A DNA stretch of 41,347 bases, from the NCBI GenBank assembly GCA_026397135.1, contig JAPLVL010000020.1, positions 17,679 through 59,025 on the forward strand, written 5' to 3'. Positions 18,355-28,797 of the stretch are shown piece by piece. Both the position numbers and the translations under genes were made by a program. Numbering within the stretch: position 1 is the first letter of the stretch; each line of letters starts with the position of its first letter. This DNA is from Candidatus Berkelbacteria bacterium. Its GTDB lineage: Bacteria > Patescibacteriota > UBA1384 > XYA2-FULL-43-10 > 1-14-0-10-43-13. A model generated the notes under the pieces. It was not told the origin of the DNA. It made no database searches and saw nothing but the letters and a program-made list of their open reading frames with translations.

Positions 18355-18420
18355 GTTTACCCTTACTCCTTACTCCTTACTTCTTACTTCTTACTTCTGA
18401 ATCCTTGCTGCTTAATCTTG
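18355..18420. repeat. Heptamer tandem array between dnaB and rlmN
   Basis: ttacccttactccttactccttacttcttacttcttacttctgaatcc. Confidence 0.85.
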
Positions 18421-19818
18421 ATCCGTTCTCTGTTTTTCCAAATCATTGAATCTCATTTGACTTGGGTTGAAGAAAAGCTCAACATTAGCAGTTGGACCAT
18501 TTCTATGCTTGCGAAGTAACACTTCCGTAATTCCTTTGCGATCAGTTTCAGCATTGTAATACTCGTCACGATAGAGAAACATCACAATATCAGCGTCCTG
18601 CTCAATAGAGCCAGATTCACGAAGGTCAGAGAGCTGTGGCCGTTTGTCGTCTCGATGTTCAACCGCACGAGAAAGCTGTGACAGTGCAATCACTGGAACA
18701 TTTAGTTCACGCGCCAGACCCTTCAAACCCCGTGAAATTTCCGAAATTTCCTGAACACGATTTCCGTCGCTACTTCGGGAGTGACCAGACATGAGCTGGA
18801 GATAGTCAATAATAATTAAACCAAGTCCGTGCTCCATTTGCAAACGACGAGCTTTGGCACGGATCTCCATCACATTTGCACTCGGAGTGTCATCGATGAA
18901 AATTGGCGCTTCAGAGAGTACACCCATAGCGTAGCCAATCTTGGGAAAATCATCATCGGAAAGATTTCCAGTTCGCAATTTCCAGGAGTCAACTGCCGCC
19001 TGCGACGCAAGCAAACGGTCAACCAACTGATCTTTGCTCATCTCCAGAGAGAAAACCGCCACAGGAACTTTGTTATCGATAGCCGCATTCTCAGCCAAAT
19101 TCAAAGCGAAGGAGGTTTTACCCATTGCAGGACGAGCAGCCAGAATTATAAGATCAGAGGGATTGAAACCGGCAGTAATTTTGTCCAAGTCACGGAAGCC
19201 AGAGCTGACGCCACGAATTGCCCCTTTGTCTTTGTCCTTGTGAATCTTGTCGATACGGTCGAAAGCATCAGTCAAGATATCCTTGATCGGAATAAATTTG
19301 TTTTTTTGTGAGCTCTGCGAAACAGAAAAAAGCCGTTGCTCCGCCTTGTCCAATGTCTCCGCTACATTTCCTTCTTCGTCGTAGCCAAACTCAGTAATAT
19401 CAGCTCCGGCAGATACGAGACGACGCAATAGCGCTTTTTCCCGAACTATTTGCGAGTAATAGACGATATTGGCCGCTGATGGCGTCGAGTTGACAATGTC
19501 AGCCAGATAACTGGAGCCACCAACTTCCTCGATCTGGTTCGCACTCTCCAAAACCTCAGACAGGGTCACAATATCGATAGGCATCCGCTTCTCGAAAAGC
19601 ATTGCCATAGCATTATAAATCAAGCCGTTGCGATTGTCGTAGAAATCGTCAGCCTGAATAATGTCTGCCATTTTGATAATAGCGTCCTTGTCGATCAAAA
19701 TAGCGCCGAGAATACTTCTCTCAGCCTCAACATTTTGTGGCGGCATTCGCAAAGTCGAGGTCGCAGACCCGCCCTCATGTTTCTTCTCAAATTGTGATTT
19801 TTTTTCTTGACGAGGCAT
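18412..19818 (-). CDS. dnaB: Replicative DNA helicase DnaB (no intein)
   Basis: PPQNVEAE, AARPAMGKT, FSLEMS, IIDYLQLM, LSQLSRAVE, SDLRESGSIEQDAD, KHRNGP. Confidence 0.98.
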   Translation of the reverse strand: MPRQEKKSQFEKKHEGGSATSTLRMPPQNVEAERSILGAILIDKDAIIKMADIIQADDFYDNRNGLIYNAMAMLFEKRMPIDIVTLSEVLESANQIEEVGGSSYLADIVNSTPSAANIVYYSQIVREKALLRRLVSAGADITEFGYDEEGNVAETLDKAEQRLFSVSQSSQKNKFIPIKDILTDAFDRIDKIHKDKDKGAIRGVSSGFRDLDKITAGFNPSDLIILAARPAMGKTSFALNLAENAAIDNKVPVAVFSLEMSKDQLVDRLLASQAAVDSWKLRTGNLSDDDFPKIGYAMGVLSEAPIFIDDTPSANVMEIRAKARRLQMEHGLGLIIIDYLQLMSGHSRSSDGNRVQEISEISRGLKGLARELNVPVIALSQLSRAVEHRDDKRPQLSDLRESGSIEQDADIVMFLYRDEYYNAETDRKGITEVLLRKHRNGPTANVELFFNPSQMRFNDLEKQRTDQD

Positions 19819-20083: not shown

Positions 20084-21445
20084 TCAAATTGCCAACAGTT
20101 TTCTCCAGGATATCAAGATTTTTCTTCTCTGAAATTTAACCGGCACAGGTACAGATTCAATACACTCTTGGGCTAACGAATCTTCGGAGACTTGAACTGG
20201 TTCGTCCATGACGGGAACAGCCGCCTCCTTTTTCGTGGTTTCCGGGATCGGACTTTCGAGAACAGCCGCCGCTGATCTGCTGACAGATTTAGAAACGACA
20301 ACCTGGCCGGAGTTTGCTTGCACGTTCACCGGCTGCGGCTTGACACTCTCGCCTGCCGTCGCTTCGATCAGTGCAATCTCTATTGGCAAGACCGGATAAG
20401 CTACATCCTTCAGCATTTTTCCCGACTGCACGAAAATATCAATCATCCGCAAAATCGTGTCTCGATCGGCCTTTTGGCTAAGAGCTTTGATCTCAGCACG
20501 ATCATCCTTGGGCAAATCTTCACTGCTCTTGCCAGTAACCTCGGCAATCAAAATCTGTCGCAATGTTTCGATAACCCGACGATTGAATTCACTCATGTCA
20601 AAGCCTTTGTCAAAAAGTTCGTGGGCGATTTTTAATCCCTCCTCCGGAAAGTTATCAAAAATCGCCCCCACAAACTTAATTACTGACAATGTTTCGGCAA
20701 TTCCCAGAATTTCTCTCGTAATATCAGAAGTCACCTTGTCGCCTTTTTGGGATGAAACTTGTTCGAGCAAAGAGAGTGCATCTCTGTGCCCACCGGCAGC
20801 CGATAACGCAATCAGCTCGAGTGAAGCATCATCAATTTCAATTTTCTCAGCTACTGCCACTCTCTTCAGGTTTTCAATCAAATCAGCCTTGTCTGCGCGG
20901 CGAAAATCATAACGCTGAGCCCGTGACAGGATAGTGGCCGGAATTTTGTGTGATTCTGTCGTAGCCAAGATAAAAACAACATGCAGAGGCGGCTCCTCCA
21001 GTGTTTTGAGTAGTGCATTGAAAGCACTCTTCGATAGCATATGAACTTCATCAATGATATAAACCTTTTTCGACATTCTGGTCGGCTGAAGTTTGGCTTT
21101 TTCGATCAAATCTCTGACATCATCAACTCCAGTATGCGAGGCCGCATCGATTTCAATTACATCAATCGCCCGCCCCTCGTTTATGGCAATACAATTCTCA
21201 CACTCGTTACAAGGTTCACCACTGTATTCAGTCTTGTTTTTCCTGGCTTCAACAGTCTTCTCGCAATTGATTGCCTTGGCCAAAAGACGAGCAGTCGAAG
21301 TCTTGCCGATCCCACGCGGCCCAGTCAGCAGATACGCATGAACTAGACGGTCGGCTTTGATGCTGTTCAACAAAGTTAGAACAACATGTTTCTGCCCAAC
21401 CATCTCGCCAAATGTCTTTGCCCTGTATTTTTGATAAAACGCCAT
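20084..21445 (-). CDS. dnaX: DNA polymerase III subunit gamma/tau; probable C-terminal tail in another frame (19974-20135)
   Basis: YQKYRAKTF, TGPRGIGKTS, Zn motif C..PCNECENC, EIDAASH, IIDEVHMLS, ALLKTLEEPP; SRA where SRC is usual. Confidence 0.95.
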   Translation of the reverse strand: MAFYQKYRAKTFGEMVGQKHVVLTLLNSIKADRLVHAYLLTGPRGIGKTSTARLLAKAINCEKTVEARKNKTEYSGEPCNECENCIAINEGRAIDVIEIDAASHTGVDDVRDLIEKAKLQPTRMSKKVYIIDEVHMLSKSAFNALLKTLEEPPLHVVFILATTESHKIPATILSRAQRYDFRRADKADLIENLKRVAVAEKIEIDDASLELIALSAAGGHRDALSLLEQVSSQKGDKVTSDITREILGIAETLSVIKFVGAIFDNFPEEGLKIAHELFDKGFDMSEFNRRVIETLRQILIAEVTGKSSEDLPKDDRAEIKALSQKADRDTILRMIDIFVQSGKMLKDVAYPVLPIEIALIEATAGESVKPQPVNVQANSGQVVVSKSVSRSAAAVLESPIPETTKKEAAVPVMDEPVQVSEDSLAQECIESVPVPVKFQRRKILISWRKLLAI

Positions 21446-21772
21446 AACACCAGAATTAAGAATAAAGAAGTAAGAAGCAAGCAAATGTTCGTCTGATACT
21501 TACTGCTTGCTCATTATAAGTTGATTTCAAGGGAGAAAAAATGCCTTGCGAGAAGTATCAAATTTATCAAGTCCCACACTGATAACTAAAAACTAATTAC
21601 CAAAAACCGTCCTGTTATCCCCAGCCAATCCCCAGAGTTGTGAACAAGCAGACCCAGCGAAATAGCTTGATTCTTAATCCTTAATTCTAAGCACTAGTGA
21701 TTTATTTCCGCTTTTTTCGGATCTTTATTGCCTTTTTCCGGCACTAAATATATAATAAAATAAAAGGAGAAA

Positions 21773-23929
21773 ATGAATCGCGAAGAACTTGCAAAGGCAA
21801 TCGCCAAAAAGGCAAAAATCGGCACCAAGACAGCTGACCGTATTATCGGCGCTTTTGGCGAAGCAATCACCGAAGCTCTGAAAAAGAAAGACCGCGTCAT
21901 TTACTCAAACTTTGGAGCCTTCTATACAGTTCACTATCCATCCAAAGTAATTTTGCACCCCACCCTTGGCGAGAAAAAGAAAATGATTATGCCGCCAACC
22001 GATGTCGTCAAATGGATGCCATCAGGAAACATCAAAGAGCTAGTAAGCGGTACTGCCAAACTTGAGCACATTACCAGTTTTGGCTCAGCCAAACGTCTCT
22101 ACGAAAGCCAGGATCCCGAGACCAGAATCGCAAAATCACACGAAGTAGACGATCAACCCACTTTGAAAAAGTCAGCTCCAGAAGACGAGACTTATGATAT
22201 TCCGATCAAGGTTAAGTCCCCAAATTCCGTTCAGAACCATCAAAGTGTCTTTGGCGACGCAGAAGAAGTAAATCCGGATGAGGAAGTCGCTATTCCGATT
22301 CACCTGATGAGGAAGAAACCCTCCGATATTATTCCTATCCCTGATCTCGATGAAGAGCCTGATCACAATTCAGAAGACAACATTTCAGATGAAGAAGGCG
22401 ATCTCGTCGCTGTCTCCAAATCTACGCCTGCCTTTATTGATTTACAGAATTATATTATTCCACACCAAATCTTGGCCCTAATGCCTGAACTCTTCGCCAG
22501 ACATTTCAAGATTGTACCGATCGGCGGAGACGAACATGAACTAATCGTTGCAATGACAGACCCTGACGACAAGGAGACAATCGAGCTGGTCCGTCGTCTC
22601 ACAGGCAAGAAGATATCAGTTCACCTGACAGACGAAGTTGGCCTGCAATCCATCTATGAGCAATACCAAAGCCTCAACAATCGTGAACAGACAGTCTGGG
22701 AGCATGCCTTTGACAACGAAATGATCTCGAACAAGACAAGCAAAACCGCCCCGATAATCCGAATCGCCGCATCTCTCGTCAAAAACGCCATCCGCGATCA
22801 TGCAACCGAAATTCACGTCGAGCCGCAAGGTAGCGAGATTCAAATTAGATTTCGAATCGAAGGAATACTGAAGAAGAACTCTGCATTCCCCAAAGAGATA
22901 GGCTTGACCTTAGTCAAAGTACTGAAAGATCTCTCCGGACTCAAGGGCAACGCCGAAGGACTTCCCCAAGACGGACAACTTCGTTTCCGTCTTGGCAACG
23001 AGGAATTCGATTTTCTAACCCATTCGATTCCGACGGCAGAGGGCGAGAAATTGTATCTCAAGATGATCAGCAAACTCCCGAAGCTTTACTCTCTTGAGGA
23101 CCTCGGGCTAGAAGAGGCTGATTATCAACTCATCCAACAAAATTTACGCAAAACTACCGGCCTAGTGTTAATAATCGGCTCAAAAAATTCAGGCAAGACA
23201 AGCACGGTTTACTCCTTTTTGCGAAGTCTCTTGGCCAATGTCATCAACATCTCGACAATCGAAGACCCGATCGAGGCTAAAATTCCTGGAATCAACCAAA
23301 GTCAAGTCAATACTTCTATCGGTTTTGATTTGCGCTTAGGCCTCGACACAATAATTAAGCAGTCCCCCGACGTTTTGTATATCAGTAGCCTCACCGACAA
23401 GAAAATTGCAGAGCAGGCTCTTCTAGTCTCCCAAGACTGCCTAGTCATAACTACTTTGGAAGCTGCCACCGTACCCGAAGCACTAACCAAAATGATAAAT
23501 TGGGGAATCGATCCTCTACTTTTGGAAAGTTGCCTAAACCTAATCACTCTCGAACATCTAGTGCGCCGAAACTGTGAAAGCTGCAAGAAAGAAATGACCC
23601 CGAGCGATCTCGAGGTCAAATCAATTCGCGATGAAGTTGCCAAAATGTCCTCCCGAGACCAATCCTTTATTCACAAGATGAGACTCCATTTTTTCAAAAG
23701 CGAAGGCTGCTCCGAATGTGGAAAATCCGGATACCGCGGACGCTTTGCCGCCTTTGAGATAATCGAGCCTACTCATGAGTTTATCGAAATGGCCCTAAAC
23801 CATAAATCACCGGGACTTTTCTGCGATTATTATCGTACGCACAACCTCAAATCCTTGCGACAAGATGCACTACTCAAAGCTCTCACAGGCTATACTTCAC
23901 TTGCAGAAGTCTGGAAGATACCTGAATAG
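21773..23929 (+). CDS. Fusion of an N-terminal HU/IHF-like domain with a PilB/GspE-family secretion ATPase (degenerate Walker B and His box)
   Basis: aa 1-91 HU pattern (MNREELAKAIAKKA...NFGAF...P...VVKWMPSGNIKELV); AMTDPDD N-domain; TEIHVEP, LPQDG, GSKNSGKT, TIEDPIE, CESC/CSEC, SGYRGR. Confidence 0.88.
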   Translation: MNREELAKAIAKKAKIGTKTADRIIGAFGEAITEALKKKDRVIYSNFGAFYTVHYPSKVILHPTLGEKKKMIMPPTDVVKWMPSGNIKELVSGTAKLEHITSFGSAKRLYESQDPETRIAKSHEVDDQPTLKKSAPEDETYDIPIKVKSPNSVQNHQSVFGDAEEVNPDEEVAIPIHLMRKKPSDIIPIPDLDEEPDHNSEDNISDEEGDLVAVSKSTPAFIDLQNYIIPHQILALMPELFARHFKIVPIGGDEHELIVAMTDPDDKETIELVRRLTGKKISVHLTDEVGLQSIYEQYQSLNNREQTVWEHAFDNEMISNKTSKTAPIIRIAASLVKNAIRDHATEIHVEPQGSEIQIRFRIEGILKKNSAFPKEIGLTLVKVLKDLSGLKGNAEGLPQDGQLRFRLGNEEFDFLTHSIPTAEGEKLYLKMISKLPKLYSLEDLGLEEADYQLIQQNLRKTTGLVLIIGSKNSGKTSTVYSFLRSLLANVINISTIEDPIEAKIPGINQSQVNTSIGFDLRLGLDTIIKQSPDVLYISSLTDKKIAEQALLVSQDCLVITTLEAATVPEALTKMINWGIDPLLLESCLNLITLEHLVRRNCESCKKEMTPSDLEVKSIRDEVAKMSSRDQSFIHKMRLHFFKSEGCSECGKSGYRGRFAAFEIIEPTHEFIEMALNHKSPGLFCDYYRTHNLKSLRQDALLKALTGYTSLAEVWKIPE

Positions 23930-23960
23930 CAAAAAGCTCCGATTTTCGGAGCTTTTTGCT
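23929..23960. terminator. Bidirectional terminator between convergent genes
   Basis: GCAAAAAGCTCCGA-TTT-TCGGAGCTTTTTGC. Confidence 0.85.
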
Positions 23961-23972
23961 TATACTTTTGAA

Positions 23973-24371
23973 CTATTTCTTCACATGACTCAAGCTTAGA
24001 GATTTTTCGATCGCCTCGATCAGATTTACTGGAACAATTTCGCTTTTGACCAAATATTGATCTTGGTCACTCATCAAACTCTTCAGCTTATTGATTTCCT
24101 GAACGAGCGCTGTCAAGAGAATAATAGGGATACCTGATATTTCCTTGTCGCTATTCTCACGAACACGCTTCATGACATCGATTCCATTCATCTTGGGCAT
24201 CATAATATCCAAGATTATGATATCCGGTTTTTCTTTTTCTGCTTTTTCCAGTGCCTCTTCTCCGTCAAATGCATTTACAATCGAATAACCTTCAGCCCCA
24301 AGACGCTCTGCATACATTTCATGCAAGGTTATATCGTCGTCAACAACAAGCACCTTGGCCGATTTTGCCAT
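23973..24371 (-). CDS. Single-domain response regulator (CheY-like receiver)
   Basis: VLVVDDD, ILDIMMPKMNG, LLTA, LVK; AGGAGG SD before ATG 24371. Confidence 0.92.
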   Translation of the reverse strand: MAKSAKVLVVDDDITLHEMYAERLGAEGYSIVNAFDGEEALEKAEKEKPDIIILDIMMPKMNGIDVMKRVRENSDKEISGIPIILLTALVQEINKLKSLMSDQDQYLVKSEIVPVNLIEAIEKSLSLSHVKK

Positions 24372-24490
24372 ATTCCTCCTCAATTTAAAATACTCGTAGT
24401 TCAAGCTTCAGCTTGTTGGTTCTATTCGCATCTTGTCGCAAAGGATACAAACTAAAGTTTGAACTCCGCTCTTGGGTGAAATCTTAATTG

Positions 24491-25522
24491 TTATTGTCCG
24501 GCATTGTAAATCACGAATTTATAAAGATCATACATTGTCCCACTCTTGCGGTCAATTTTTGCCTGCATCGTCCGAAGTGTGCCACCAAAATAGCCTGTCG
24601 AATTGATAGTGGTAAAAGGCCCCGGCACAACAGTTTGATTTGTCATATCACAAGCAGTATTCTGACATTTTGTTGAAATCAGCCCGAACTGGACATCATA
24701 ATAAATAGGCGTAATCTTTAGCGTTATTTCACTCCCAAGTGGAACTCCTAGAGGATACAGTCCAGTCAGAATCTGAGTCAAGGAAAAACTCCGGTTTGCA
24801 ATGCTTGCGTCGACAGTGCTGAAATTATCAGGATTTCCATCAGAATTGAAAACTACATTCTTCCGAGAAGACATCCCGCTCGAATCGATAGCTTCGACAA
24901 TGACTCTGGCATTGGCAGTTAAGTCAGCTGAATCAATCGCGGAATCATATTTGAAAAATGCACTTAAATCATTTGACACATTCACGAAAGTTGACGGCAA
25001 TCTCACCGTCAGAGTTTGGTCATGATCAATCTTGAGTATAGGTTTGTTCACGCCATAACTAGTGTCGAGGATATCTCCGATCAATAAATTCTCATCGCTA
25101 TTAATATCTTGCCCGTAAAACGGGGATTCGTCGATTCCATTGCCGAGATAACCCATCCGGAGATCGTAATATTGTTTCGAAGGATCACTAATCGTGCTTG
25201 TATTCTTGTTTATACCTTTAAAATCAATTATCGAGCTGCCGGTTATTTCAATTTCGCCCGCAAGATCGGCTCGAAAAACGGAGGAGTTGTCCTTCAGTTT
25301 CCAAGTATCGAAGGGCACCGACGAAAAATCGGAATATCGATAGCGCAAAAGCCCTTCCTCGATCCCAGATTCAGCCGCATAGTATGAGCCGACACCATTT
25401 TCATAGACCGAAGCGTTATTCGCCTCCAGAATTAAAATACGGCCAAAAGAAAAAGCGATCGTGCCGATTGCCGTCACCAACAAAATTGCGATAATTATTG
25501 CGGAGCCTCGCTCTCTCTTCAA
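24491..25522 (-). CDS. PilX-like type IV minor pilin
   Basis: Class III signal KRERG/SAIIIAILL..., SYYAAESGIEEGL, C-terminal INSTGYFGGTLR. Confidence 0.82.
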   Translation of the reverse strand: MKRERGSAIIIAILLVTAIGTIAFSFGRILILEANNASVYENGVGSYYAAESGIEEGLLRYRYSDFSSVPFDTWKLKDNSSVFRADLAGEIEITGSSIIDFKGINKNTSTISDPSKQYYDLRMGYLGNGIDESPFYGQDINSDENLLIGDILDTSYGVNKPILKIDHDQTLTVRLPSTFVNVSNDLSAFFKYDSAIDSADLTANARVIVEAIDSSGMSSRKNVVFNSDGNPDNFSTVDASIANRSFSLTQILTGLYPLGVPLGSEITLKITPIYYDVQFGLISTKCQNTACDMTNQTVVPGPFTTINSTGYFGGTLRTMQAKIDRKSGTMYDLYKFVIYNAGQ

Positions 25523-27388: not shown

Positions 27389-28753
27389 TTAGTTTAATTT
27401 GCGATCCATTTCTGGAACAACGCGGAGGCGTTGTTCTATCATTTCCCAGCTCTCTTCACCCTTAAACAAACCGTACTTTTGCCAGACTTTTTCTCGCTCA
27501 CGATATTTATCGTCGTAAATGGCGTAGGATTTGCAATATTTCTCCGGAGTCAAGTTGAACATCAGTGCGTTTGCTCCGGCAAGCAAACCGAGATGGCGAC
27601 CCTCCAGATCAAGTGTTTCAAGCGCAGTTGTAACCGGTATTTTAATCTCCGGCATCAAAAACCGGGCAATCGCAATATATTTCAAAGTCAATTCCAAAAG
27701 AGTTTCTCTCGTCATTCCCGACCCGATCGGGAATCCATCAGAAATATTGGATCCCCAGGTCATGGCTTCGCCTGCCCGAGGATGACAAGATAGCGGAGTA
27801 TTCTTTGCTAATAAAAAGGGCCCGGCCGAGAGCATCGGTGCCTTCAAACTTTTCATAAAAATCAGATCATCAGCAATACCTCCAATCGTTTGGCCAGGTA
27901 GTCCGAATAGGCTACCTGTCGCCACATAGTAGCCCGTTTTAATTAATTCCTGAATTAGCCTTTTTCGATCATCAAATTTATGACCTGGCCGCATCTTGGC
28001 ATACAATTTTTGGTTGGATATCTCAAAGCGAATTAGTGCACCAGTCGCTCCAGATTCATACGCTTCTTTGTAAAAATCAACACTTCTCTCACCAACCGAC
28101 AGAAATATGAAAACTCTCATTTTCTTTTTGATCTCTCTTACCAGCTGGATCAATTCTGAATCAGAATAATTCTCATCTTCTCCGCTTTGCAAAACGAGAA
28201 GTTTATAACCTTCGTTTTCGACAGCATTCCCGGCGACTTCGACGATCTCCTCAACGCCAAGCCGGTATCGATCAATCCCCTGGTTGTCCTTCCTAATCCC
28301 GCAATAGAGGCAATTGTTCTTGCAGTAATTTGAGAATTCAATAATTCCATGAATACAAACAAAATCTTTGATCCGCTCCTTGCGCAGAGTGTTCGCCTCG
28401 GCATAGAGAGTTTCGAGATTATTCTTGCCTTTCAGACTAAATAAATAAATTATCTCGTCCTTGGTTAAATTTGAATCACCACTTCTGACTTTGTAGATAA
28501 TTTTCTTGAATTTGAGAGAGAGGCGACTGACATCGACTGGGTTATATTTGTCTTCCAACAATGAAATAATTTCCTTGGCGTCTTCCTCCGATATGGCCTT
28601 CACTGCCCTGTTTGTGGCGTAAAGTATCCAATCCCCGGGTTTCACATCAAAAACAAGCGAGAGGTCAATCTGTGCCCTCTCGCGATGAGATATGACAGTT
28701 GCCACACCCTTACTATCTATACTTTCGATTTTTCCAGGAATTGTTAAACACAT
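27389..28753 (-). CDS. Fusion of a HypC/HupF-like domain with a HydE/BioB-like radical SAM enzyme
   Basis: MCLTIPGKI...VKPGDWIL...ISEEDAKE (HypC pattern); GIIEFSNYCKNNCLYCGIR, VLQSGED, GLPGQT, GPF...TPL, PVTTALETL, AGAN..M.NLTP...YAIY (HydE pattern). Confidence 0.88.
   Translation of the reverse strand: MCLTIPGKIESIDSKGVATVISHRERAQIDLSLVFDVKPGDWILYATNRAVKAISEEDAKEIISLLEDKYNPVDVSRLSLKFKKIIYKVRSGDSNLTKDEIIYLFSLKGKNNLETLYAEANTLRKERIKDFVCIHGIIEFSNYCKNNCLYCGIRKDNQGIDRYRLGVEEIVEVAGNAVENEGYKLLVLQSGEDENYSDSELIQLVREIKKKMRVFIFLSVGERSVDFYKEAYESGATGALIRFEISNQKLYAKMRPGHKFDDRKRLIQELIKTGYYVATGSLFGLPGQTIGGIADDLIFMKSLKAPMLSAGPFLLAKNTPLSCHPRAGEAMTWGSNISDGFPIGSGMTRETLLELTLKYIAIARFLMPEIKIPVTTALETLDLEGRHLGLLAGANALMFNLTPEKYCKSYAIYDDKYREREKVWQKYGLFKGEESWEMIEQRLRVVPEMDRKLN
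27711..27786. repeat. GTCAT...ATGAC palindromic element inserted in frame in the HydE-like domain
   Basis: GTCATTCCCGACCCGATCGGGAATCCA...TGGATCCCCAGG...CCCGAGGATGAC; encodes CHPRAGEAMTWGSNISDGFPIGSGMT. Confidence 0.85.
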
Positions 28754-28797
28754 ACACAAAAGTTAAATGTTAAAAGTTAAATGTTAAAAATTAAAGA

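Follow-up and report, generated by a model that had tools for sequence, protein, structure and literature searches.

A 41,347-nt stretch of DNA from Candidatus Berkelbacteria bacterium (assembly GCA_026397135.1, contig JAPLVL010000020.1, positions 17,679 to 59,025 of the forward strand), referred to as the window, contains a gene in which an HU/IHF-fold domain is joined to a PilB/GspE-type ATPase, the motor ATPase of type IV pili. The gene is a single open reading frame (ORF) without internal stops, and its coordinates and length of 718 amino acids (aa) agree with those of the first-pass annotation, which was made from the letters of the DNA alone. The features of the gene and its neighbours are listed in Table 1. 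The genome of the window (G000) was compared with its 40 nearest relatives, giving 41 genomes of the same order. These genomes form the families f1 to f3 (32 genomes) and f4 (9 genomes).

Table 1. The fusion gene, its domains and motifs, and the neighbouring genes, in window positions. pLDDT, predicted local distance difference test score.
Feature	Position	Strand	Remark
HU-MshEN-PilB fusion ORF (P0001)	21773..23929	+	718 aa; degenerate ortholog of the order-wide HU-PilB
HU/IHF-fold domain, aa 1-91	21773..22045	+	PF00216; charge +8; arm proline P63 retained, arm arginines replaced
Acidic, Pro-containing disordered linker, aa 92-220	22046..22432	+	from pLDDT, charge and motif list
MshEN/GspE-N1-type domain, aa 221-300	22433..22672	+	PF05157; pLDDT about 88; fold match 4pht
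PilB N2 domain, aa 323-450	22739..23122	+	from Pfam, AlphaFold2 model and Foldseek
PilB C-terminal ATPase domain, aa 451-718	23123..23926	+	from Pfam, AlphaFold2 model and Foldseek
Walker A, aa 469-477	23177..23203	+	GxxxxGKT pattern present, interior non-consensus
Asp box, aa 493-501	23249..23275	+	intact
Walker B remnant, aa 527-544	23351..23404	+	Glu and Arg of canonical GEIRD lost
His-box remnant, aa 554-565	23432..23467	+	both His lost
Tetracysteine span C601, C604, C646, C649	23573..23719	+	invariant in the family
Divergent intergenic region dnaX/fusion gene, 288 bp	21485..21772	.	adjacency conserved across the order
dnaX (clamp-loader tau/gamma)	20084..21484	-	conserved divergent neighbour
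dnaB helicase	18412..19818	-	conserved, adjoins dnaX
Single-domain response-regulator receiver	23973..24404	-	conserved convergent neighbour
PilX-like protein, 343 aa, N-terminal hydrophobic segment	24491..25522	-	weak profile matches in orthologs

The Pfam search of the protein returned HU, MshEN, and T2SSE, in this order and with the acidic linker behind HU; all three domains scored above their curated cut-offs. Bac_DNA_binding (PF00216) matched aa 1-91 over profile positions 1-89 of 90, with 57.2 bits against a cut-off of 22.4 (E-value 2e-15), as the first-pass annotation had read this segment. MshEN (PF05157) matched aa 221-300 (46.9 bits, cut-off 23.1, E-value 2.8e-12); the usual N-terminal domain of PilB, whose absence had been implied, is therefore in place. 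T2SSE (PF00437) matched aa 323-713 (224.5 bits, cut-off 24.9, E-value 2.2e-66). Among the NCBIfam models, PilB and GspE ranked best, with 300 bits against 675.65 for TIGR02538 and 291.3 bits against 630.25 for TIGR02533. Both scores are below the cut-off, so the ATPase body resembles PilB without coming near an equivalog.

An AlphaFold2 model of the window protein was built on 28 family members, with a mean pLDDT of 74.3. The N1, N2, and C-terminal domains were modelled confidently (pLDDT 85-95); by blocks of 10 residues, the C-terminal domain ranges from 81 to 95. The Foldseek search with the predicted fold identified GspE, Thermus PilF, and Geobacter PilB at E-values of about 1e-41; the best TM-score, normalized on the target, was 0.75 to Geobacter PilB (5tsh/5zfr). 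The top fold match was 4pht, a GspE whose N1 domain is bound to GspL.

The catalytic motifs were examined in an alignment of 28 fused relatives and nine unfused PilB/GspE proteins, and in a second set of 30 orthologs taken from the genomes. Motif states were counted over the 29 full-length orthologs with an alignable ATPase region, the window included. In alignment with the canonical orthologs and the unfused PilB/GspE proteins, the window copy keeps the GxxxxGKT pattern of Walker A and an intact Asp box (IEDPIE). All 28 family members share the four cysteines (C601, C604, C646, and C649). In the Walker B segment the window has ISSLTD in place of the canonical IGEIRD, and both the Glu and the Arg are gone; GEIRD was read in 21/29 orthologs and in all nine unfused proteins. 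The His box reads QDCLVITTLEAA in the window and TGHxVLSTLHTN in the canonical form, with both His replaced. The motif calls of the first-pass annotation (Walker A, Asp box, and cysteines intact; Glu and His box lost) were thus borne out against the 21 canonical orthologs and the nine unfused proteins. With the loss of the catalytic Glu and of the His box, the non-hydrolysing pseudo-ATPase proposed at that stage is the sensible reading of the window's ATPase body.

The fusion is conserved across the order. A search of a 5.8-billion-protein collection identified 28 proteins with all three Pfam domains (30-48% identity), some of which are named by source as Berkelbacteria or Patescibacteria group. 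A PF00216 domain in a frame that is not a standalone HU was found in 41/41 genomes of the order. The HU-bearing frames are 234-944 aa long in f1 to f3, the shorter ones lying at contig breaks, and 254-314 aa long in f4. Of 401 genomes drawn from the whole phylum, a fusion-type HU profile matched seven at E<=1e-18, each of them from the window's order; the remaining 394 gave no match at this threshold. A pattern scan of the GTDB species representatives found 37 fusion loci. Their titles are Candidatus Berkelbacteria (6), Patescibacteria group (8), and plain 'bacterium' (5); the other 18 are titled uncultured Candidatus Saccharibacteria, which are automatic labels. This survey of the architecture across genomes, which had been suggested together with a check for chimeric assembly, shows that the fusion is real. 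An assembly chimera is rejected because the independent orthologous assemblies (28 database proteins and 41/41 genomes) carry the same fusion. The Logan contigs play no part in this decision: a 4993-nt contig of run X1 spans 21694-24500 without a difference, and X1 may be the source sample; runs X2 and X3 gave short pieces of the region only.

In the current databases the fusion genes are named as ordinary PilB, GspE, or TadA ATPases. No published description of an HU-PilB fusion was found in a literature search covering sources other than subscription journals and supplementary files. In a term search of a 2017 survey of the HU superfamily (PMC5499826), none of the terms PilB, GspE, ATPase, pilus, secretion, and candidate phyla occurred, and the survey does not treat this architecture.

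The gene order was compared by clustering the ORFs of 41 loci, and one locus (L013) was confirmed by Pfam. The common order is dnaB< dnaX< [HU-pilB]> pilC> pilM> pilN> pilO> 87-aa ORF> receiver< PilX-like<. The dnaX cluster lies upstream in 37/41 loci; in the remaining four the sequence stops with the fusion gene. In 21/29 orthologs all four motifs (Walker A, Asp box, Walker B, and His box) are canonical. No other protein of the canonical genomes matches T2SSE as well as the fused copy (430-461 bits), and pilC is retained in 19 of the 20 canonical loci with downstream sequence. Full-length PilM (80-129 bits) was found in 21 genomes, every one of which has a canonical HU-PilB; PilM adjoins the fusion gene wherever the contigs allow a view. 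The canonical motifs, the operon position, and the occurrence of PilM only together with canonical HU-PilB identify HU-PilB as the motor of the sole PilMNO-type pilus system of these organisms. Ancestrally the ATPase was intact and stood at the head of an HU-pilB-pilC-pilM-pilN-pilO operon, and the state of the window copy is derived from this. The fusion is not a dead ATPase by nature, as these 21 canonical orthologs show. The first-pass proposal of a DNA tether to the pilus motor suits the ancestral form more than the window copy, whose pilC and pilMNO are deleted and in whose genome a full-length PilM was not found.

Eight of the 29 orthologs are degenerate: the window, G002, G007, G008, G009, G014, G018, and G020. 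All eight have lost the His box and have wholly or partly lost Walker B, and Walker A is additionally lost in G007, G008, and G020. All eight keep an open frame of 641-755 aa. In the window and in six of the seven other degenerate loci, pilC, pilMNO, and the 87-aa ORF are gone, and the receiver gene directly follows the fusion gene; in the window neither pilC nor pilMNO was found between the two. Of the ten non-canonical loci (eight degenerate, one split, and one truncated), none retains pilC and one has pilMNO-like genes. This locus (L025, G014:C5) has an intermediate state, in which the His box and Walker B are degenerate and pilC is lost, while genes clustering with pilM, pilN, and pilO are present. 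The profile search found no full-length PilM in the degenerate or f4 genomes. In G014 there was no full-length PilM_2 match, the best hit (E-value 1.9e-6) being to an FtsA-size frame; in G000 the best match was likewise an FtsA-size frame (25.9 bits).

Other relatives have divided or shortened the gene. In G022 a 20-nt indel splits it into an HU-linker-MshEN frame (376 aa) and a frame with N2 and the C-terminal domain (350 aa). The two frames overlap (L032, G022:C71, 1043-3083) and both are conserved relative to G018; the split could be real or an assembly error on the 4.5-kb contig. G016 encodes a 480-aa protein with HU and MshEN, in which a T2SSE match is absent. In all nine f4 genomes a protein of about 255 aa, consisting of HU and a C-terminal part, replaces HU-PilB beside dnaX (e.g. 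L047:3371-4147). This C-terminal part matched the PilB N2 domain moderately (hhalign probability 70.5%, E-value 3.9e-5) when compared alone; the comparison of whole-protein profiles gave the HU match only. In the f4 loci (L043-L051) the PilX-like gene is flipped and now lies directly downstream, and the receiver is lost. The possibility that relatives encode the two parts separately, which had been raised against the fusion, is therefore realized in part, with the split in G022, HU plus MshEN in G016, and HU plus an N2 remnant in f4; HU is the part retained in all of them.

A species-proxy tree was reconstructed from DnaX and DnaB (37 rows; L018, L026, L030, and L045, which have no dnaX/dnaB, were left out). 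At least three changes from the canonical to a non-canonical state were counted on this tree, with f4 excluded from the count. The 8 f4 genomes of the tree group together as a single clade (100% support), and the f4 truncation counts as a further event. The window clusters with G018 and G022.

The domains differ in constraint. The median pairwise identities, descriptive figures from related and non-independent genomes, were 58.4% among canonical and 61.5% among degenerate pairs for HU; 55.0% and 37.5% for MshEN; 73.4% and 33.2% for N2; and 67.3% and 28.7% for the C-terminal domain. The linker stands at about 20% in both kinds of pairs. In the Nei-Gojobori analysis the synonymous sites were saturated (pS 0.7-0.97) for all pairs with the window and for nearly all others, so only the proportions of nonsynonymous (pN) and synonymous (pS) differences are reported. 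The closest degenerate pair is G018 and G022, and its HU domain gave the one comparison with an unsaturated pS. This domain is 99% identical, with pN 0.005 and pS 0.56. The ATPase part of the same pair (350 codons) is 77% identical, with pN 0.123 and pS 0.77; pN was 0.16 in the linker and 0.18 in MshEN. The canonical pair G001/G019 has similarly low rates in the HU and ATPase domains (pN 0.074, 0.049, and 0.063). In the genus closest to the window, purifying selection acts on both HU and the ATPase body. As pN is far below pS in G018/G022, the dead copies are not free-running pseudogenes; the body is selected more weakly, and HU very strongly. Of the two outcomes that had been set out, decay and conserved degeneration, the data agree with the latter.

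The HU domain has its own features. In an alignment of 40 fusion-type HU domains (A1) the arm proline P63 is invariant (40/40). The profile-to-IHF alignment reads v-i-k-h-P in the fused HU where IHF has r-p-g-r-N-P, which agrees with the earlier description of a kept proline and lost arginines. The profile of the 40 domains matched IHF/HU chains best in the PDB, with E-values of 5e-13 to 1e-10. The AlphaFold2 model contains helices at 3-14 and 18-37, strands within 48-83, and a helix at 85-92, at pLDDT of about 70-80. The net charge of the domain is +8 in the window and ranges from +3 to +13 in the family. The fused HU domains have an invariant arm pattern (Y55, K58, I60, P63, K80, W81, and P83), which the free HUs do not have. 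Co-folding of an HU homodimer (two copies, alignment A1) reached a score of 0.39, where the mark is 0.42 and the controls scored 0.00; it gives no verdict either way.

The linker is predicted to be disordered over aa 99-216 (pLDDT about 30, and below 50 over aa 99-107 and 113-216), with a net charge of -17 in the window. It contains three acidic-x-IPI-[KH/P] copies near aa 143, 174, and 187. P144 and I145 are almost invariant in the 28 family members, and the IPI motif is listed in most f1 members. This acidic-IPI motif may be a docking site. At 22190-22345 (aa about 140-191) an acidic run followed by [IV]-P-I-[KR] stands out in a linker that is otherwise unconserved.

The rest of G000 (1.14 Mb in 67 contigs, estimated completeness 98%) encodes further pilus genes. 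A canonical pilB elsewhere in the genome, for which a search had been advised, is present on contig C35; it encodes a 554-aa PilB with every motif intact. Contig C34 carries PilT and PilC, and contig C47 a second PilC. A third PilB is cut by contig ends (C47:35394-35771 and C34:8221-8736), and the two contigs probably abut at this gene. In relatives it corresponds to a paralog of about 810-860 aa that adjoins pilT.

A free HU was found in 37/41 genomes, with about 100-112 bits, compared with 29-74 bits for the fused or truncated form. In G000, PF00216 matched the fused copy only. The idea that the fused HU is the only HU of G000 is rejected, the free-HU block being absent from the assembly and most likely unassembled. 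In relatives this block (L090-L095) has the order RNase Y, YmdB, HU, two DUF881 genes, AI-2E transporter, SmpB, and RsmH. No counterpart of the block was found in the G000 assembly, where SmpB and YmdB are without a match. A region of 9 kb or more therefore seems to have stayed unassembled, notwithstanding the completeness estimate.

Among the neighbours, the divergent dnaX and the opposite-strand receiver are as first annotated. The receiver cluster (C4) has 26 members with 52-72% identity to the window copy. The 343-aa neighbour is labelled PilX-like from 7 of 18 orthologs, which match PilX_N weakly (best E-value 2.8e-4); the window copy itself has no Pfam match at E<=1. The orthologs (alignment A5) have a near-invariant N-terminus, consisting of a basic residue followed by G-[SA]-A, a hydrophobic helix, and YYAAESG[IL]E, and a conserved GYYGG...IDRQSG..YD motif at the C-terminus. 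The gene remains next to the truncated HU gene in f4. Further away, at 27389-28759 on the minus strand, a 456-aa ORF combines an N-terminal HupF/HypC-family domain (E-value 1.2e-13) with a radical SAM domain (E-value 4.8e-18). This unusual pairing was found near the fusion gene in five loci (cluster C12).

Compared with the solved structures of Geobacter PilB (5tsh/5zfr), Thermus PilF (5oiu), and Vibrio GspE (4pht/4ksr), the fusion protein has the same succession of N1, N2, and C-terminal ATPase domains, together with the tetracysteine motif, the Asp box, and the P-loop, and its predicted fold reaches a TM-score of at most 0.75. The orthologs in relatives also head a pilB-pilC-pilMNO operon. 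The differences are the N-terminal HU on a disordered tether of about 120 aa, the distance from the PilB equivalog, and, in the window, the replaced Walker B and His-box residues and the absent platform genes. Compared with HU/IHF proteins, the N-terminal domain has a full-length profile match, a predicted two-helix body with a beta arm, the arm-tip proline, and the basic charge. It differs from them in being joined to an ATPase body of 600 aa, whereas HU/IHF proteins are free-standing and about 90 aa long; in its replaced arm arginines; and in its score of about 57 bits, compared with 100-112 bits for the free HUs of relatives.

ComGA of Bacillus subtilis is a PilB-family DNA-uptake ATPase that has been connected with how competent cells handle incoming DNA and with the arrest of their growth or replication. 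It is an active ATPase and is not known to have a DNA-binding domain of its own; the likeness is functional only, and may serve as a lead. In Synechocystis PCC 6803, Hfq docks on the C-terminus of PilB1 at the pilus base, and this tie affects piliation and natural transformation (PMC4390875). Both cases tie a nucleic-acid-binding protein to a type IV pilus extension ATPase; there, an RNA chaperone is bound non-covalently to an active motor, whereas here HU is fused covalently and the window's motor is degenerate. Hfq on PilB1 is the nearest functional precedent found.

The reading that we favour, by a modest measure, is that the window protein has a DNA-binding role carried by HU on a non-hydrolysing PilB-fold scaffold. 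The role is assigned to HU because this domain is what stays conserved. The protein is the copy, in the window's lineage, of an order-specific PilB paralog with an N-terminal HU on a long acidic disordered tether. The ancestral form would be a normal PilB hexamer with six basic HU domains, which might form a DNA-binding surface at the cytoplasmic face of the pilus. In the window's lineage the platform genes were deleted, and the Walker B Glu and the His box were then lost; HU has stayed as conserved as in the active orthologs, with the whole frame under purifying selection. The PilB-fold scaffold probably still oligomerises, and it may bind nucleotide through the P-loop and the Asp box. HU would bind DNA, perhaps as a multivalent organiser of the nucleoid or of a locus, or as a local regulator. 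The data show the architecture and its distribution, the operon, the losses of genes and motifs, and the constraint on each domain; DNA binding and its purpose, oligomerisation, and the lack of hydrolysis are what we infer. Pilus extension by the window copy is very unlikely because there is no platform, no catalytic Glu, and no His box. A more extended version would see HU-PilB as the built-in cytoplasmic DNA handle of a DNA-uptake pilus motor, a hexamer whose tethered HU domains would capture or arrange DNA at the base of the pilus. This DNA role would have gained a value of its own, and HU would have been kept after pilus loss, in at least three lineages and two truncations, as a novel type of multivalent protein associated with the nucleoid or replication beside dnaX-dnaB; the window copy would then be an exapted, ATP-binding, non-hydrolysing hexameric DNA organiser. 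This version is speculative and, taken as a whole, rather unlikely.

Several points weigh against the DNA-binding reading. The arm arginines of HU/IHF are replaced, and K58 is the sole basic residue kept in the profile-to-IHF alignment. In characterised HU/IHF proteins three arm arginines contact DNA; thus, HU-type DNA bending of the classical kind cannot be taken for granted. Purifying selection on the ATPase body is clear, and the window keeps Walker A and the Asp box, so the protein may have a nucleotide-dependent or motor-associated role. The receiver and PilX-like genes stay linked to the degenerate copy, which hints at a continuing tie to pilus biology. The domain-identity medians are descriptive, and with synonymous saturation there is no true dN/dS for the window's own branch.

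The altered arm leads to a different view of the HU fold, as a protein-protein module for dimerisation or partner binding, which would cross-link or regulate PilB subunits and might pair with free HU or bind the acidic linker or the receiver. The fused HUs have their own invariant arm pattern, a normal free HU is also kept in most of the genomes, and the acidic-IPI motif of the linker might be a docking site. On the other hand, the domain is strongly basic family-wide, keeps the arm-tip proline in all 40 sequences, and matches the HU/IHF profiles over their full length; even with altered arms, HU folds described in the literature continue to be regarded as binding nucleic acid (PMC5499826). 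We consider this view improbable. The selection on the body and the linked neighbours bear on another alternative, the model of the first-pass annotation, in which the dead ATPase still works in a pilus or competence apparatus, either regulating the remaining PilB/PilT/PilC systems or serving them as a non-catalytic subunit, and HU brings DNA or the nucleoid to the motor. The genome has a canonical PilB, PilT, a third PilB, and two PilC proteins with which such a subunit might work; the N1, N2, and C-terminal domains are predicted to be well folded and are under purifying selection in the nearest genus; and the receiver and PilX-like neighbours remain linked. Hfq on PilB1 of Synechocystis offers a precedent (PMC4390875), and bacteria of the candidate phyla radiation are thought to depend on pilus-linked DNA uptake (PMC6744442). 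However, the gene's own pilC and pilMNO are gone exactly where the motifs decayed, and the domains presumed to contact partners (N1, N2, and C-terminal) diverged most, with 29-38% identity among the degenerate copies. Other lineages discard the ATPase domain and keep HU, which is hard to fit to a hexameric motor. A remaining place in the pilus machine therefore seems doubtful to us.

The least probable of the alternatives is a functionless, slowly decaying relic, in which the conservation of HU would be apparent only, the domain being short and conserved from the start. The motif erosion is uneven among lineages, extending to Walker A in three genomes; one copy is split by the 20-nt indel, others are truncated, and the operon partners are deleted. 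Against a relic, all eight degenerate copies keep their open frame, and in G018/G022 pN is far below pS in every part of the gene, with HU 99% identical at a pS of 56%. HU has not become less similar among degenerate copies (61.5% identity) than it is among active ones (58.4%), and the truncated f4 form is conserved as one clade, with 8 genomes in the tree and 9 in the search. A relic is thus very improbable, and an HU-borne DNA-binding role on a PilB-fold scaffold is preferred over these alternatives at the strength given above.

Patescibacteria have tiny genomes and for the most part cannot synthesise nucleotides; type IV pili are believed to supply the DNA and the contacts on which they live (PMC6744442). 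An order-wide fusion of HU with the motor of the sole PilMNO-type system would provide a direct and testable link between motor and DNA in these organisms. What appears to be new is an HU-tagged PilB paralog, present in the window as a conserved and probably catalytically dead form; the component families are known. Annotation as an ordinary PilB, GspE, or TadA hides both the HU domain and the dead copies. The graded series of an active motor, a dead motor, a split gene, HU with N1, and HU with an N2 remnant is a natural experiment on which part is indispensable, and it would be a clean example of a motor ATPase turning into a pseudo-enzyme after the loss of its machine. The main interest is at the family level, in the covalent link between a pilus motor and HU, and in the repeated discarding of the motor with HU kept.

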